Shown here piece by piece: positions 23,101-64,000 of a stretch of 64,000 bases of DNA; the stretch's first letter is position 1; each line of letters starts with the position of its first letter. The position numbers were made by a program. Source of the stretch: Elusimicrobiota bacterium (GTDB lineage Bacteria; Elusimicrobiota; Elusimicrobia; UBA1565; JACRDR01); the NCBI GenBank assembly GCA_041694815.1, contig JBGFSC010000033.1:32001-96000 (forward strand). Reading direction: 5' to 3'.

Positions 23101-26100
23101 GCGAACACTCCCTACTGCGCGCCAAATCGGTTGTTTCGTACAACCCGGCCATCTACGCCGCCTCCCTGGAGCAGAACTGGTTCGAGTTCGAGAAACATCT
23201 CTATGCCTCGCGGCTTTGGGAGGGGACCCTGCAGCCCTTGAGCCAGGAGATCGAGCAGCTCATGACCGGGTATTTCAGCTCTGAGGAATCGGCGCCCTTT
23301 TACTCTGATAGCCGGGGCCTGCCGGTGCAGCAGGAGACGCTGGCATTGAGATCCTTGTTGGGCAGGCGCTTCGCCGCCGAAGGCTTCCGCTTGTTGCTCC
23401 AACGCGACGTGCTGGACATGGGCCAGTTCCAGGAGATACGCCCTTACGCCGGAAACGGGCGCCGCCCGGGGACGCGGCGCAGAGGCCCGTCCCGTGGGGG
23501 GCCGCTGATTTTGCGCATCACGCTCGAGGGTTCGCCCGATGGAGTGGAGGCGGCCGACCTGCGGGCGGGGGACATGGTCTACGCCCAGATCACCGACACG
23601 CGGGATATCGCCCAGTACCTTTCTAAGCTATTCGGGCCCGGCGCCTCGGAGGACACGAGCTCACTGCTCGTGCCGGTAGAGGCGGTCGAAAGCGGCCCTA
23701 GCCAGGAGATCGGCATCCGCGTCCGTTTCTCGCTGGGCGTTTGCGGAGACGTGAACGTGGCTCCGGAGACGAGGCTCAAGGTGATTCGCCGTTCGTCGAG
23801 ATCGAAGGAGTCTTGGTGGAAGAAGTTCTTTGGGTAATTCTCGCGAGAAACCTCGAACTTCGTCGCGCGAAGCGCGACGAAGTCACGCGCCCGAGGCGCG
23901 TAAAAGTCGCCGTTTAGTAGTTACGGAGGCATCATGCCGGCCTTGGTCGTCGTAGGCGCCCAGTGGGGCGATGAGGGAAAGGGCAAGATCGTCGACTTCC
24001 TCAGCCGCGGGGCCGACATGGTGGTCCGCTACCAGGGAGGCAATAACGCCGGGCATACCATCATTTTCAAAGGACGCCCGCTCGCCCTGCACCTGATCCC
24101 ATCCGGCATCTTGTTCGCCGGCAAGCGCAACGTCATCGGAAACGGCGTCGTCGTCAGCCCGGGCGCGTTCCGCGACGAGGTGCGCCTGCTGCAGGCCCGT
24201 GGCGTGCGCGTGCGCGGCCGGCTCTTTGTGAGCCTGGGCGCGCACGTGATCCTTCCCTACCACATCGTGCTCGACGGGCTGCGGGAGGAGGGCGGCAGGG
24301 GTATCGGCACGACCAAGAAGGGCATCGGTCCTTGCTACGAGGACAAGGTCGCGCGCATCGGCATCCGCGTCTGTGATTTCCTCGACCCGGAACTGTTCAA
24401 GTCCCTGGTGGAGCAGAACCTGCGCGTCCGGGCGGTGGAATTGGGCGCGGGCCCCAAGCCCTTGGCTCAGATCCGCCGTGAGGTATTCGGCGACTACGGC
24501 GCCTTGCGGGCCTTCCTTAAGCCCTTTGCGGTCGACACGCCCCCGATCATCAACGAGGCATTGAGCCGAGGGCGGCGGGTGCTTTTCGAGAGCGCGCAGG
24601 GCGCCATGCTCGATCTGGATTTCGGGACCTACCCGTTCGTGACTTCCTCCAATCCGGTCGCCGGAGGCGCCTGCATCGGCGCGGGCGTCGGCCCAAGCCA
24701 GGTCGGCCATATCTTGGGGGTCACCAAGGCCTACACCACCCGCGTAGGCCTGGGCCCGTTCCCTACGGAGCTCGACGGGCATATCGGGCGCTACCTCCGC
24801 GAGAAGGGCAAGGAGTACGGCGCTACGACGGGCAGGCCCCGGCGCATCGGCTGGCTCGACCTGGTCCAGCTCAAGCGCGCCATCCTCGTCAGCGGGATCC
24901 GTTCGCTTGTGATGACCAAGCTCGACACGCTCGCCAACGTGCATCCCGTCAAGGTCTGCGTCGCCTACCGGCTGGGCCGCAAGAGGCTGGCGGCGTTCCC
25001 CATGGGACGCCGGGAGCAGCTCGAATGCGAGCCCGTTTACGAGACCCTGCCCGGCTTCAGCGGGGATTTTACGGGGATCCGCCGCTTCGACGCGCTGCCC
25101 AAGGCCGCGCGGGATTATGTGGCCTGGGTGGAGAAGCGCCTGGAGACACCGATCGATATCGTGTCGGTGGGCCAGAGGCGGGAAGAGACGATCGTCCGCC
25201 GGCCGAATTCCGCTTGGAAATAAAGCCTTAAATCCGTGTCAAGGGCCTAGGTCTTGACAGGCCAAGGGCATCTGCTATACTTCGACTGTTGTACCGATAA
25301 ACCGGCAAACCCTCCGCGAGGAGGGGGCGCAAAGCGTAGGGCCTGGAGGTCCAGGTCGCCTGGCTACCGAAGACAACAGTAGGTTCCGGGGTCGCGCAGC
25401 TGGAGTTCCCGTTTCCGCCCGGCCTTGACTGGCTATCTTCGGGATAGAGGGGTGAGATAGTCAGCGAGGCCGGGCCTTTTATGGGCAACGGGAGGCGCTT
25501 GAAAGGGAATATCGAGGCGGCTTGGGCGTACTGCGGATGGACCGCGTGGCTCGCGGTCTGGGGGTATTGCCTCCCCGCCCCCGCGTACGCCGAGCCGGCT
25601 CCGGTGGGGTTAGAGGCCCAAGGAGTCGATCCTTGGGCCGCTTTGCATAGTCGCGACCTGGACGTGCGTGACGCCTTCAATCGCCCGGTATCCAGGCGCC
25701 TCATCGAGGGCCAAATCAAGGCGGCATCCTCCGGGGCCCGGGATTCGGTCTCATTTTTCTCCAGGCTTCCCAAGGCGCGCTCGGTGCTGGTCTCCTTGGA
25801 ACGGATGCTGATAGCCAGCTGCGGCCTGGCGGCGCCCTCGCCATGGTCCGGTTTACGTATCGCCGTCACTTCCTGGCTGTGCCGCCCGTCGCCCAAGATC
25901 TCGGTGTTCTGGGCCTTCCTGAGTGTCGCCTCGGCTGCCGCTGCGTCGATTTCGCTGGTCGTCATGCAACCCCGCAAAATCGCCTCCCCCGCGCCGGTCC
26001 TGCGCTGTTAATTCCCGTAAAAGCCCCGTAACAAGTTCCCTGTACAGTTGTTGAAGTTTTGCCGCTCGAGCATTCGGTTTGACGTGGAAAACGAGGAGGA

Positions 26101-62100: not shown

Positions 62101-64000
62101 ACGGGAATATCGCCAACGGCGACGGCAAGTTCCAGGCCTCCATCGACAAGGAGATCACCGACCCGGCCATCCTCGTGAAGTTCACCACCAACACCCCACG
62201 CGCCGCCGACCTCGTGCTCAAGGTCGACCCGAACGACAGCAACAATTACTCGTTCCGCACCATCACCCAGTCGACGATCACGTATTTCGTGGTCTATGAC
62301 TATGAACCCGCGGCCGTGGCGTACCTGGACCATGGAACGCAGGTCGGAACCGCCGACATCGTCCCGCTGGGTGGGGATGGCGACGTCGTGCCCTTCTCGA
62401 CCATCCTGACGACCAACGTATACGTGCGCCCGACGGCCGACCTAGCCGCCGTCGAGAAGGTCAACAACCCCGGCACCGGCAACGCCGCGGCGGTGCCCGC
62501 CTCCATCACCCAGGCCGATGCCAATCAACCGGTCATGAAGCTGACCCTGCGGACATTGAGCGGCGCGGCGAGCTGGTCGGGCCTGAAACTGGACCGTTGG
62601 GTGCCCTCGAGCTTGAGCGGCAGCGTCATCTTGAACAAGGCGGCCGACGTCAAGAATATCCAGATATGGGCGGATGTCAACGGGAACGGACTCCTGGATC
62701 CCACCACCGACCAAATCGTAAGTCCCTTGAGCGGCATCGTGCATAATTTCCCGCAAAGCACCCTGGGCGTGGCCATCAGTTCGACGCAGGCCGGGCCGCT
62801 CGACGTCGTCGTCACTAATCTCTCGGCCTTCTTCCCGGCCGACGACGTGTTCCCGTCCGTTCCCCAGCGCCTGGTGTTCGCCGACGACCAGACCGACCAG
62901 GCGAATAAGGAGGTCTTCGTCTGCACTGGCATCTCCTTCTCCTCGGGAGCCTTCACCAACTGCATGCCCGGCCAGGACCAGACCACGCGCAAAAACCACG
63001 CCGTCGGCACCGTGATTTCGGGCCCCGCGCGCGTACCCGTGCAAGGCACCGGAGGCGGACAGACGCTCACCGTCTTAAACAAGGACTTCTTCGTGGCTTA
63101 TGACTTGGATCCGTTGGCCACGGTCAACCCTTCGGCCAACCTTGGCGCTATCATCCCGACCACCCATTACTTCCTTATCCAATCCCCGAAGCGGATGCAC
63201 GACAAGGATTCTAATGGCACCGTATCGGTCGGCATCCCGCCGAACGGCAAGACGATGTCCTTGGTGTCCAACGTAGCCGAATACGCGGACAAGATCGTCG
63301 TCGTCGCCTCCAATACGGTCGACGACGTGAATCTGGGCCCCTTCCTGCAGCAGAAATCGACCGGGGCGGTGCTCAATTTCTCGCTTTACACCGACGTCGC
63401 CGACGCCTTATGGCGCTGGGTGATCGTGACGGCCACGGGCACCTCGGCTGCGGCCGGCAATGTCTCCAACGACGTGCAGCTGGTCTCCTTATGGCGTGAC
63501 GCCAACAATAACGGCAGCTTGGACGTTAACGACGTGCTGGTGGGCACGGGGACTTTCGGCAACACCGGCCAGCCGCTCACCTCTCGTGTGCAGCTGAGCA
63601 CGCCGTTTAGGCTGATGACGCAGGCCAAGGCGCCGACCCCGCAGCGCTTCTTCGTCGCTTATTATCTAAGCGCCAACGCGCAGTCCAATGACCCCATCAC
63701 CCAGGCGCCTCGTACCTTAGGGGCGGTGCTCACGGCGGGCTCCTTCCCGCAGAACAATCCCACCGTCGACGATTATTTCGCCAACGCCTTCACCCTGCCC
63801 AATATCTACAATCCCGCTTCCCCGCTTCCCTTCGAGGGCAAGTCGCGGGCCATCATCCCGGCGTCGCAGACGATGTACGTCAAGACGACGCCGATGTTCT
63901 CAAGCTCCAGCGGCACCTTCGTGGCCCCCACGGTGTCCTTCGCCGTGCCGGCCTCCACGCCCGCAGCGGTGGACGCCGCTTGGGTGATCACCTCATCGGC

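Follow-up and report, generated by a model that had tools for sequence, protein, structure and literature searches.

The largest gene of this Elusimicrobiota genome encodes a putative surface protein of 13,779 residues (here, the giant) that is tied to a FliG/MotAB operon (here, the rotor) in four ways: through the order of the genes, their co-occurrence across genomes, a dedicated motif at its C terminus, and a second-messenger switch common to both. We favor the reading, at a probability of about 45%, that the giant is an adhesin whose anchor is a cargo-specific barrel and which is coupled to the FliG/MotAB motor. The window analyzed is a stretch of 64,000 nucleotides (contig positions 32,001 to 96,000), and all features located in it lie on the plus strand. 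The giant open reading frame (ORF) occupies contig positions 58886 to 100225 and is uninterrupted and free of N; its first 12,371 codons fall within window 26886..64000, and it ends beyond the window at contig position 100225 (L001:4225). It is 3.5-fold longer than the next-largest ORF of the genome (3,928 aa), makes up 1.49% of the genome, and has a GC content of 63.5% (genome, 62.9%). The first-pass annotation had reported a product of 13,779 aa with Ser/Thr/Ala/Gly-rich repeats for the largest gene; the single open frame bears out this length, and the composition of the protein includes 11.4% Ser, 10.2% Ala, 9.8% Thr, and 9.3% Gly.

The protein starts with a signal-peptide-like segment (MARPIALLAGLLLAPSFCWA), whose n-h-c pattern looks typical on inspection by eye, and a nonrepetitive N-terminal head (together residues 1 to 604; window 26886..28697). 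The head is lineage specific: it has no match in the orthologs of genomes G003 or G037, a single 797-aa homolog with 33% identity, and a weak BNR_4 lead. It is followed by 66 tandem Ig-like repeats of about 120 aa (residues 605 to 9,276; window 28698..54713), which were delimited with a self-built HMM that covers 8,065 residues, with partial Big_13 matches, and by self-BLAST, in agreement with an earlier proposal of Ig-like repeats from about residue 600. Weaker self-similarity extends to about residue 10,300. From residue 9,277 onward (window 54714..64000, continuing outside), the protein is conserved and largely nonrepetitive, as judged by collinearity with its orthologs, which begins at residue 6,600 for G003 and at residue 9,900, i.e., for the last 3,900 residues, for G037 (GC content, 44%). 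This C-terminal part, aligned across 26 orthologs, has no sequence match in Pfam or the PDB. Beyond the window, the protein ends in an FN3-like domain and then a C-terminal domain (CTD; about residues 13,674 to 13,779). Pfam recognizes Big_13, weakly Big_3 and FG-GAP, FlgD_ig in the tail (31.5 to 34.6 bits), and nothing else in the giant; of the matches listed previously, Big_13 and the C-terminal FlgD_ig (and little else) recurred, and DUF7151 was not seen.

The ending ..RKIGVIH or a close variant, which had been noted before as common to the orthologs, forms the C terminus of all 20 orthologs fetched. Compared with TIGR04183 (T9SS type A), the giant CTD scores 18.5 bits (E value, 0.004; model positions 2 to 42), below the cutoff of 23. 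Neither PF18962 nor TIGR04183 matched the giant in the Pfam and NCBIfam scans at an E value of ≤0.01, nor did TIGR04131 (type B CTD) match the giant tail in the NCBIfam scan at that threshold; PF13860 (FlgD_ig) matched the tail above its cutoff with 34.6 bits. An HMM made from the giant CTD also matches paralogs that pass TIGR04183. The earlier label of a T9SS-type CTD thus draws its support from the rest of the genome and none from the curated model, the tail itself being below the cutoff. The tail differs from those of all 18 other CTD proteins of the genome, and the giant is the only one of its ORFs that ends in ..GVIH. The same ending recurs on the rotor-linked cargo of paralogous rotor modules in G003, L024, and L027, and the motif appears from these sequences to be specific to rotor-linked cargo.

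Upstream of the giant, the order is promoter, riboswitch 1, hairpin, a small protein, a HEAT-repeat protein, and the giant itself. The small protein (176 aa; window 25481..26011) has an N-terminal signal-like segment, belongs to no known family (no Pfam match), and has homologs in the same place in G001, G002, and G003 (E values of 1e-8 to 7e-11). The HEAT-repeat protein (257 aa; window 26111..26884; PF13646 HEAT_2, 104.3 bits) has a weakly conserved counterpart in the corresponding place in G002 (E value, 1e-3). Downstream of the giant lie a promoter and riboswitch 2, then the operon encoding a PorV-like/TPR protein, a FliG-fusion protein, MotA, and MotB. The first of these, directly after the giant, is a member of the PorV/PorQ family with TPRs (NF033709, 98.4 bits; cutoff, 90). 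The FliG-fusion protein has FliG_M (91.9 bits), FliG_C (42.9 bits), and TPRs, MotA scores 200 to 216 bits against the flagellar MotA/PomA/MotP models, and MotB carries plug and OmpA domains. Domain scans therefore matched every HEAT, PorV-like, FliG, and MotAB call of the first-pass annotation; the FliF part that it assigned to the FliG protein was not detected in the genome's own protein and was detected in a paralog of a relative. The barrel that goes with the giant falls into a clade of orthologs (support, 91/94) apart from nine generic paralogs.

Using the last 1,407 aa of the giant as the query and an E value of ≤1e-40 as the definition of a strong match, we found orthologs in 116 of 401 genomes of the phylum. 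By strong matches, 110 genomes have both giant and rotor, 6 have the giant only, 27 have the rotor only, and 258 have neither. The two lie on the same contig in 62 genomes and directly adjoin each other in 51 of them, on the same strand and with a gap of 1.8 to 3.3 kb; six further cases lie within 12 kb, and 10 families are spanned. In the remaining 48 of the 110 genomes, giant and rotor are on different contigs, where adjacency cannot be judged. Family f3 and five same-contig cases no longer show the adjacency, and in two relatives with complete or near-complete genomes, the giant and rotor loci are more than 1 Mb apart, each with its own riboswitch. A conserved pair had been claimed from 24 of 58 loci, and these larger counts make the case stronger. 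Paralogous rotor modules, whose FliG-fusion proteins are 23 to 31% identical, carry a CTD gene upstream in three of four instances.

The adjacency has its proximate cause in a genome-wide rule, under which CTD genes have their own PorV-like gene directly downstream. Thirteen of the 19 CTD genes of the genome have a PorV-family gene downstream, within −51 to +462 nt; 11 proteins exceed the TIGR04183 cutoff, and at least 12 PorV-family genes are present. An SprA-like protein of 1,829 aa (C19:8829-14318) aligns with its model in three collinear stretches (142.5 bits; the cutoff of 200 is not reached), and such a protein occurs in 356 of the 401 phylum genomes. GldL/PorL and GldM/PorM gave no match in this genome (97.8% complete) and 155.2 and 334.8 bits, respectively, in a positive-control genome. 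The catalytic part of PorU was likewise not found in the genome, in which the CTD end of the model (positions 955 to 1094) alone matches, on CTD proteins. For GldK, the FGE-sulfatase half alone (positions about 220 to 406) matches 11 small proteins, with at most 82 bits against a cutoff of 350. To judge from its genes, the organism has no flagellum: FlhA has no match in the genome, and Flagellin_N and YscJ_FliF have none in any of 21 genomes, the controls being positive in four flagellates.

We propose that the giant is a Sec-exported surface fiber consisting of a variable head, 66 Ig-like repeats, a conserved base of 4,500 residues, the FN3-like domain, and a T9SS-like CTD, and that it would work as follows. 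(i) The CTD, a special subclass ending in ..RKIGVIH, would remain uncleaved, because PorU is missing, and dock in its own PorV-like outer-membrane barrel. (ii) This barrel, with a putative periplasmic TPR domain, would be supplied as the first product of the FliG-fusion/MotA/MotB operon. (iii) The FliG-fusion protein would be a bitopic inner-membrane protein with a periplasmic domain and cytoplasmic FliG_M/FliG_C, turned or pushed by a flagellar-type MotAB stator. (iv) Through the periplasm, the fusion protein would connect with the barrel and, by way of it, with the fiber, much as in gliding except that a flagellar-type rotor would stand where GldLM does; the proton motive force might therefore move, tension, or retract the adhesin. 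That the TPR domain touches the FliG-fusion protein in the periplasm is pure conjecture on our part, and we infer docking, mechanical coupling, movement, the sign of regulation, and any SprB-like motile coupling. It is rather doubtful that the whole amounts to an undescribed envelope machine of free-living Elusimicrobiota, in which MotAB acting on a membrane-anchored FliF_C/FliG, with no flagellum, would drive an adhesin of 10,000 to 19,000 residues through a PorV-like/TPR barrel that reads the ..K[IV]G[VI]IH tail, under a two-operon c-di-GMP riboswitch regulon.

A dedicated export motor, in which FliG/MotAB would power the threading or folding of the giant through the outer membrane and the fiber would be a static adhesin, is an unlikely alternative. 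It would fit the absence of GldL and GldM matches beside CTD cargo, the company that the rotor keeps with very large cargo (10,000 to 19,000 aa), and the description of a single Flavobacterium motor that serves secretion and movement alike (PMC10202324). However, family f16 (89 genomes) keeps TIGR04183 cargo in 48 genomes and the SprA-like protein in 50, with the rotor in just 1, which indicates that export as such is independent of the rotor, and the paralogous modules handle far smaller cargo (894 to 2,270 aa). Because CTD cargo and SprA-like proteins persist in lineages without the rotor, the latter is not a general export motor.

Less likely still is an ordinary c-di-GMP-regulated adhesin for biofilm formation or aggregation, whose sole real partner is the cognate barrel, cotranscribed with a motor of some other envelope function. 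The CTD-then-PorV-like dyad occurs genome-wide with no need of a rotor, and with the same query it is found outside the Elusimicrobiota in 7 of 58 loci, all 58 of which lack rotor genes; giant and rotor are unlinked in family f3, and c-di-GMP riboswitches ahead of adhesin genes are known (PMC6366702). Nevertheless, co-retention survives this unlinking, since, by our reading of the match tables, a strong rotor match is present in 27 of the 29 genomes of family f3 that have a strong giant match. The same gene order in three of four paralogous modules, the association of the tail subclass with rotor-type barrels, and the single operon that the barrel, FliG-fusion, and MotAB genes form in each of the 21 close loci, within the DNA covered, also argue against this alternative.

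It is very improbable that the 41-kb ORF arose by chimeric assembly or repeat collapse or that it is a pseudogene in decay, as its MAG source, an exact internal repeat of 1,812 nt, and the splitting of the G001 and G002 orthologs across several frames might suggest, given a frame of 13,779 codons that no stop interrupts at a GC content of 63%, orthologs of 10,000 to 19,000 aa in dozens of independent assemblies that are collinear over thousands of residues, a gradual decay of identity around the exact block, as from gene conversion, and an intact promoter, riboswitch, and terminal hairpin. Judging from these sequences, the giant gene is real and ancient; the open frames of orthologs in independent assemblies reach 19,358 aa, and all carriers seen are MAGs or SAGs, with no cultured carrier among the named records. 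The exact repeat is direct and in frame. Copy A (window 35352..37163; residues 2823 to 3426) and copy B (window 39693..41504; residues 4270 to 4873), which lies 4,341 nt (1,447 codons) farther downstream, sit in a 3-kb duplication with 88% identity that falls off gradually on both flanks, and the G003 ortholog has a single region to which both align. Because of this repeat, the repeat copy number of the gene is not secure; in this respect an earlier worry about assembly collapse was justified.

Among known systems, T9SS cargo is anchored by cognate PorV-like barrels whose genes cluster with the cargo, and PorZ stays on PorQ (PMC10202324). The lack of PorU suggests that the giant CTD stays on a cognate barrel in the manner of PorZ. 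The SprB/SprF/GldLM system of Flavobacterium johnsoniae, as described there, likewise combines a giant repetitive adhesin, a C-terminal sorting domain, and a clustered gene for a cargo-specific barrel, and it needs an ion-driven envelope motor for adhesin handling, for which the rotor would be the presumed counterpart. In contrast to SprB, the giant has no type B CTD, its barrel matches PorV/PorQ rather than PorP/SprF, a flagellar-type MotAB with a plug and a FliG-domain membrane protein are present where no GldL or GldM was found, and the gene stands under c-di-GMP riboswitches in a phylum outside the Bacteroidota. With T9SS type A cargo and PorV (PMC10202324), the giant shares a CTD of about 100 aa, of the β-sandwich type, with ..WDG..G..V..G.Y.., and its start, judged by eye, may be a Sec signal like theirs. 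It differs in a tail that is below the cutoff and ends in ..IGVIH instead of ..V[IV][KR], in a barrel gene for each cargo, in the lack of matches for PorL/M and the catalytic part of PorU, and in a distant SprA-like protein. Like the flagellar motor, the rotor has FliG_M/FliG_C, MotA, and a MotB with plug and OmpA domains, whereas its FliG carries, by fusion, a membrane-spanning N-terminal part and a TPR tail, and an outer-membrane barrel gene stands first in its operon.

The available text of a 2023 review confines CTD/PorV-type sorting to Bacteroidota (PMC10202324); our findings would extend it beyond that phylum, with a strict arrangement of one cargo and one barrel. New here are the CTD-PorV pairing rule, the rotor-linked tail, and the separation of the rotor from general export. 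For the motAB and fliG genes of nonflagellated Elusimicrobiota, described as being without a known role in the part of the literature available to us (10.1101/2022.07.08.499144), the giant is a concrete candidate substrate, and its ..GVIH tail together with the PorV-like/TPR barrel offers a testable interface. If the coupling is real, surface motility would have a third solution in addition to flagella and GldLM gliding, and FliG-MotAB would be a living case of a torque generator detached from type III secretion, with a bearing on the origin of the flagellar motor. Genes of more than 10,000 codons in uncultured lineages have been reported from metagenomes in a study whose available text centers on Omnitrophota and names Elusimicrobia just as a downloaded comparison set (10.1101/2023.11.21.568195). 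The giant takes 1.5% of a 2.8-Mb genome for one protein, an investment kept across a phylum of uncultured bacteria.

Both transcription units start with the same kind of promoter and a c-di-GMP-I riboswitch. A sigma-70-type promoter (TTGACA-16-TATACT with TG; window 25254..25281; 11/12 consensus matches, against a mean of 0.2 sites in shuffled sequences) lies about 12 nt ahead of riboswitch 1, a c-di-GMP-I aptamer (window 25294..25371; RF01051 full model, 56.9 bits, E value of 1.8e-8; gathering score, 35). It is followed by a terminator-like hairpin with a U-run (window 25417..25480), a putative expression platform that is conserved across relatives and whose 3' arm also spans the Shine-Dalgarno-like GCGAGG of the next gene. 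The hairpin is kept in G000 to G003 and G095, with a conserved loop (GGGAUAGAGGGG) and compensatory changes at two stem pairs, and leaders of family f5 likewise carry a terminator plus U-run. The same promoter architecture (L001:4346-4373) precedes riboswitch 2 (contig positions 100454 to 100530), which fits best the clan variant RF03167 (c-di-GMP-I-GGC; gathering score, 59); the 60.7 bits that had been reported for it belong to this variant, RF01051 giving 59.6. Three nucleotides separate its aptamer from the first in-frame start codon, and in 15 loci, the start codon lies 5 to 8 nt past the pattern match for the second aptamer. Since promoter type and c-di-GMP-I riboswitch are shared, c-di-GMP would set both units together, and we lean toward repression at high c-di-GMP; joint action would be unlikely if the two riboswitches had opposite signs. 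The Cd1 class I riboswitch of Clostridioides difficile, which precedes the 23-kb flgB operon (PMC6366702), is comparable in its class I aptamer, self-contained terminator, and very long surface/motility operon, whereas here adhesin and motor form two separate units with one predicted riboswitch each. Our literature search found no paper that combines Elusimicrobia, c-di-GMP, and riboswitches. Upstream of the giant operon, a riboswitch of clan CL00126 at or above the gathering score is present in 16 of 25 genomes examined, the other 9 having none at that score within 4.5 kb. A whole-genome scan gave exactly two c-di-GMP-I riboswitches, in line with the earlier count. Likewise, the only two in the complete genome G001 are those of the giant and the rotor, and G002 has these two plus a third match below the family threshold.

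The gene for the giant surface protein, g01761, is a single open reading frame (ORF) that extends from window position 26886 past the end of the window (C38:58886-100225 on the contig) and comprises 13,779 codons with no stop and no N. Its GC content (63.5%) compares with a genome value of 62.9%, and Ser, Ala, Thr, and Gly are abundant in its product. It is 3.5 times as long as the next-largest ORF and makes up 1.49% of the genome (2.77 Mb, 97.8% complete). The housekeeping gene purA lies before the giant's promoter, a near-consensus TTGACA-16-TATACT with TG (window 25254-25281). 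This promoter is followed by a c-di-GMP-I aptamer (riboswitch 1; window 25294-25371, 56.9 bits), a 59-nt hairpin with a U-run (window 25417-25480), and the genes of a 176-aa protein with a signal-like start (window 25481-26011) and a HEAT-repeat protein (window 26111-26884). An 80-nt hairpin begins 3 nt past the giant's stop codon (contig 100229-100310, or L001:4229-4310 in the locus that starts after the window; -49.3 kcal/mol, z -9.0); it divides the two transcription units, and its tail has no clear U-run. Between it and riboswitch 2 (contig 100454-100530; 60.7 bits for the clan variant RF03167 and 59.6 bits for RF01051) stands a second promoter of the same build. Riboswitch 2 precedes the rotor operon of six genes. 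The first encodes a TPR-bearing PorV/PorQ-family barrel and the second the FliG fusion, a protein of 650 aa in which two membrane segments are combined with FliG_M, FliG_C, and TPR; then come the genes of a coiled-coil protein, of MotA, of MotB (with plug and OmpA domains), and of one further conserved protein. The ORF, the riboswitches, and their neighbors had been described in the first-pass annotation, and ORF, Rfam, and domain checks agree with that description. Upstream (window 15591-25223) lie genes for ComM-like, LysM, DprA, TopA, XerC/D-type recombinase, and PurA proteins, and downstream (L001:12087-15375) those for a class V aminotransferase, MnmA, and Ddl; judged by gene content, both flanks are housekeeping, and the locus lacks the appearance of a mobile island.

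Residues 1 to 20 of the giant appear Sec-signal-like when read by eye. The head (residues 21 to 604) is unmatched in two orthologs and has one 797-aa homolog in a large protein database. Residues 605 to 9,276 consist, as assembled, of 66 tandem units of about 120 aa, delineated with an HMM built from the giant itself; Pfam recognizes only partial Big_13 matches among them. From about residue 9,300 onward the sequence is largely unique and, by ortholog comparison, the best conserved part of the protein. Collinearity with a same-family ortholog begins at residue 6,600 of the giant; with the ortholog of a GC-44% lineage within the phylum it begins at residue 9,900, at 25 to 33% identity, rising to 43% over the last 280 aa. 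An alignment of 26 orthologs shows that the C terminus comprises an FN3-like domain followed by a terminal domain that starts with ..NYPNPFD.. and ends with ..RKIGVIH. Such a start motif is typical of C-terminal domains (CTDs) in non-Bacteroidota phyla. Sequence searches of the PDB with the head (800 aa), residues 10,001 to 12,371, and the last 1,407 aa returned no match, and the leads from a protein atlas were weak (FlgD_ig/fn3 clusters at 0.75 to 0.77 and BNR_4 at 0.83 for the head). Homolog searches with queries of up to 5,000 aa recovered partial orthologs labeled "hypothetical." NCBI likewise labels giant orthologs "hypothetical protein," and one paralog-level Elusimicrobia protein is labeled "T9SS type A sorting domain-containing."

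Four queries, among them the giant's last 1,407 aa (matches in 168 genomes, 116 of them at E≤1e-40) and the FliG fusion (159 genomes, 137 at E≤1e-60), were run against one and the same set of 401 phylum genomes. Strong matches to both were present in 110 genomes, to the giant only in 6, to the rotor only in 27, and to neither in 258; these counts are descriptive, as kin are not independent. The parallel persists family by family, and in two large families of small genomes both components fall below 5% (giant 2/118 and rotor 1/118 in f4; giant 4/89 and rotor 1/89 in f16). In 51 of the 110 genomes with both, the rotor gene lies on the same strand 1.8 to 3.3 kb past the giant's end, which leaves space for the riboswitch and the barrel gene. 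The distance is 4.5 to 11.4 kb in 6 others, and in 5 the two are far apart on the same contig; the remaining 48, with giant and rotor on different contigs, are uninformative on adjacency. Tables read by eye place adjacent pairs in 10 families. Family f3 has no adjacent pair, yet the rotor is strong in 27 of its 29 strong giant carriers. Adjacency as the main argument had been dropped on a first sample, mostly from f3, in which the giant was upstream in 1 of 21 close PorV-TPR loci; the phylum-wide sample corrected that. The pairing of giant and rotor is borne out more strongly than first proposed, and the low share of adjacent loci reported earlier (24/58) is explicable by sampling of this kind.

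Our literature search found no paper combining Elusimicrobia, c-di-GMP, and riboswitch, and the system is not described in PMC7031533, from the literature on Elusimicrobia and type IX secretion. The role of motAB and fliG in nonflagellated Elusimicrobiota is termed unclear in a preprint (10.1101/2022.07.08.499144), and the accessible part of another preprint, on giant genes, mentions Elusimicrobia only as a downloaded set.

CTD cargo is not confined to the giant. The T9SS type A model (TIGR04183) matches 17 places in the genome, 11 of them over the cutoff. The giant's own tail scores 18.5 bits, below the cutoff of 23, and an HMM of its CTD also matches several proteins that pass the TIGR04183 cutoff. 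At 13 of 19 CTD places, a PorV-family gene follows directly downstream on the same strand, at -51 to +462 nt; it lies 2 to 13 kb upstream at four others and is absent at two (examples of CTD genes from the genome-wide survey are C27:35165-36033, C41:24378-22475, C50:10483-12374, and C54:106955-105661). A cargo thus tends to come with a barrel of its own, and this one-cargo-one-barrel layout lies outside Bacteroidota. With this query, a CTD plus PorV-like dyad was also found in 7 of 58 loci of other phyla. The dyads match two known arrangements, type B cargo genes clustered with PorP/SprF barrels and PorZ retained on PorQ, which, according to PMC10202324, are thought to anchor cargo and shield the CTD from cleavage. 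The catalytic part of PorU was not found in this genome, which fits a CTD that is retained. A cargo-specific barrel is the nearest explanation of the giant-rotor gene order.

The giant's barrel, which carries a TPR domain, is the first gene product of the rotor operon. A tree of 31 barrels places it among its orthologs (support 91/94), the one from the GC-44% lineage included, and apart from nine generic paralogs of this genome (94/84). The giant ends in ..RKIGVIH, an ending found in no other ORF of the genome; the tails of the other CTD proteins, 18 in all, are ..V[IVL][KR]-like. Giant-type endings recur on cargo encoded directly before rotor-type barrels, namely, ..RKIGVIH in the relative G003, ..YKLGIIH in locus L024, and ..YKVGVIH in locus L027; the cargo of L163 has a variant tail, ..RRIGVVR. 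A CTD gene lies upstream in three of four paralogous rotor modules; in one paralogous module, a plain barrel directly follows the cargo, whose tail is generic. The module L159 (G003:C15:44001-64000, minus strand) encodes a 2,270-aa CTD protein ending in ..RKIGVIH, PorV-TPR, a FliG protein, MotA, and MotB; in the FliG protein, HisKA/HATPase_c and the C-terminal domain of FliF (34.6 bits; cutoff, 23.8) are present as well. This paralog lends some support to the earlier label "FliF-FliG," while a FliF part was undetected in the protein of the present genome. Similar paralogous modules are L161, L162, and L163. Directly after the MotB gene of L159 is a further c-di-GMP-I riboswitch (L159:8528-8622, minus strand), and the gene after it (L159:7579-8499) encodes a CsgG/FlgO-like lipoprotein (PF03783, 40.3 bits; PF17680, 36.0 bits).

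Because FlhA was not found in this genome and flagellin and FliF were found in none of 21 genomes, in searches with positive controls, the rotor is not part of a flagellum. The reading that we favor draws on the two riboswitch units, the cargo-barrel rule, the dedicated tail and barrel lineage, and the co-retention and gene order of FliG and MotAB. The fiber's CTD would stay docked in its barrel, whose periplasmic TPR would contact the periplasmic part (residues 28 to 211) of the FliG fusion; MotAB, anchored to peptidoglycan, would turn or push the cytoplasmic FliG domains, and force would pass to the adhesin, resulting in movement, tension, or retraction. We give this whole scheme of docking and mechanical coupling a probability of about 0.45. 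The first-pass annotation had likened adhesin and motor to SprB and the gliding apparatus; the pairing stands, and the mechanical link and the motility analogy, like the direction of c-di-GMP control, are put forward as hypotheses.

Alternatively, the rotor might drive export. As a general motor of CTD export in the phylum it is ruled out by family f16, in which 48 of 89 genomes have TIGR04183 cargo, 50 have an SprA-like protein, and 1 has the rotor. A motor dedicated to exporting the giant appears unlikely to us. In the present genome, the SprA/Sov-like protein (1,829 aa; G000:C19:8829-14318) scores 142.5 bits, below the cutoff of 200. It is present in 356 of the 401 genomes and, being nearly universal, is not specific to the giant-rotor system. 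It also occurs in small genomes without CTD cargo, and its role in the envelope may be a more basic one. The genome yielded neither GldL nor GldM (155 and 335 bits in a Bacteroidota control genome). GldK is matched only over its FGE-sulfatase half, by eleven proteins of 260 to 390 aa that score 82 bits or less (on C8, C19, C25, C34, C37, C38:835-1308, and C40); three of them are encoded on C19 near the SprA-like gene. Somewhat less probable still is that the giant is a static adhesin next to an unrelated motor, a reading against which the 27 of 29 f3 carriers that keep the rotor without adjacency speak.

A whole-genome scan identified riboswitches 1 and 2 as the only c-di-GMP-I elements, in agreement with the earlier annotation, and seven GGDEF matches indicate that c-di-GMP can be made. 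Giant and rotor are more than 1 Mb apart in the complete genome G001 and in the 3.1-Mb contig of G002, with a c-di-GMP-I element before each; G001 has only these two. All 4 close genomes have a clan member that reaches its gathering score upstream of the giant operon, as do 12 of 20 others drawn from several families; in one of the latter it is 4 kb from the operon with tRNA genes between. At this site the distant GC-44% genome G037 has only a subthreshold c-di-GMP-I-UAU match (L115:7397-7478; 27.8 versus 65.9 bits), a possible aptamer of altered specificity. Before the rotor operon, a pattern scan detected the aptamer in G037 as well as in 15 of the 21 close loci.

The hairpin and U-run after riboswitch 1 are self-contained, with compensatory stem changes and a conserved loop, and canonical terminators occupy the same place in another family. 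Antiterminators were sought by prefix folding and alignment, and the alternative helices found are short. In 7 of 16 leaders, the terminator 5' arm contains UCUUCGG, a 7-nt complement of the aptamer 3' tail. The self-contained terminator and this complement fit an OFF-switch layout. In this the leader resembles Cd1, the element before the flgB operon of Clostridioides difficile, described as an OFF switch in the accessible part of PMC6366702. Riboswitch 2 ends 3 nt ahead of the first in-frame AUG in this genome, and in 15 loci the AUG is 5 to 8 nt past the pattern match. In most relatives (L003 to L020), a covarying hairpin (alignment A3, columns 139 to 174), some 70 nt past riboswitch 2, encloses a second in-frame AUG, which begins a better signal peptide (MARAC..) than the AUG adjoining the aptamer. 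With two candidate AUGs, the true start of the barrel gene, and hence the control mechanism, is ambiguous in most relatives. From these leader features we lean slightly toward repression of both operons by c-di-GMP, which, if true, would suit a motility apparatus better than a biofilm adhesin.

The giant contains an exact 1,812-nt direct repeat (window 35352-37163 and 39693-41504), in frame and 4,341 nt apart, within a 3-kb duplication of 88% identity. Flank identity declines gradually, from about 96 through 80 to 53% on one side and from 83 to 90% to about 55 to 70% on the other, a pattern of gene conversion unlike that of a false join. Because of this decay, and because orthologous open frames of 10,000 to 19,358 aa exist in many independent assemblies, it is very improbable that the 41-kb ORF is an artefact. 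Two such frames, of 12,492 and 18,913 aa, were read through in this analysis. By these comparisons, the giant's existence and size class are independent of this assembly, and its exact length rests on how many copies of the 4.3-kb unit were assembled. The giant orthologs of G002 (L094 to L096, G002:C1:1932735-1968340) and G001 (L097 to L099, G001:C1:281145-314716), the two relatives with the most contiguous assemblies, are split over at least three frames, which could reflect assembly indel errors or real decay.
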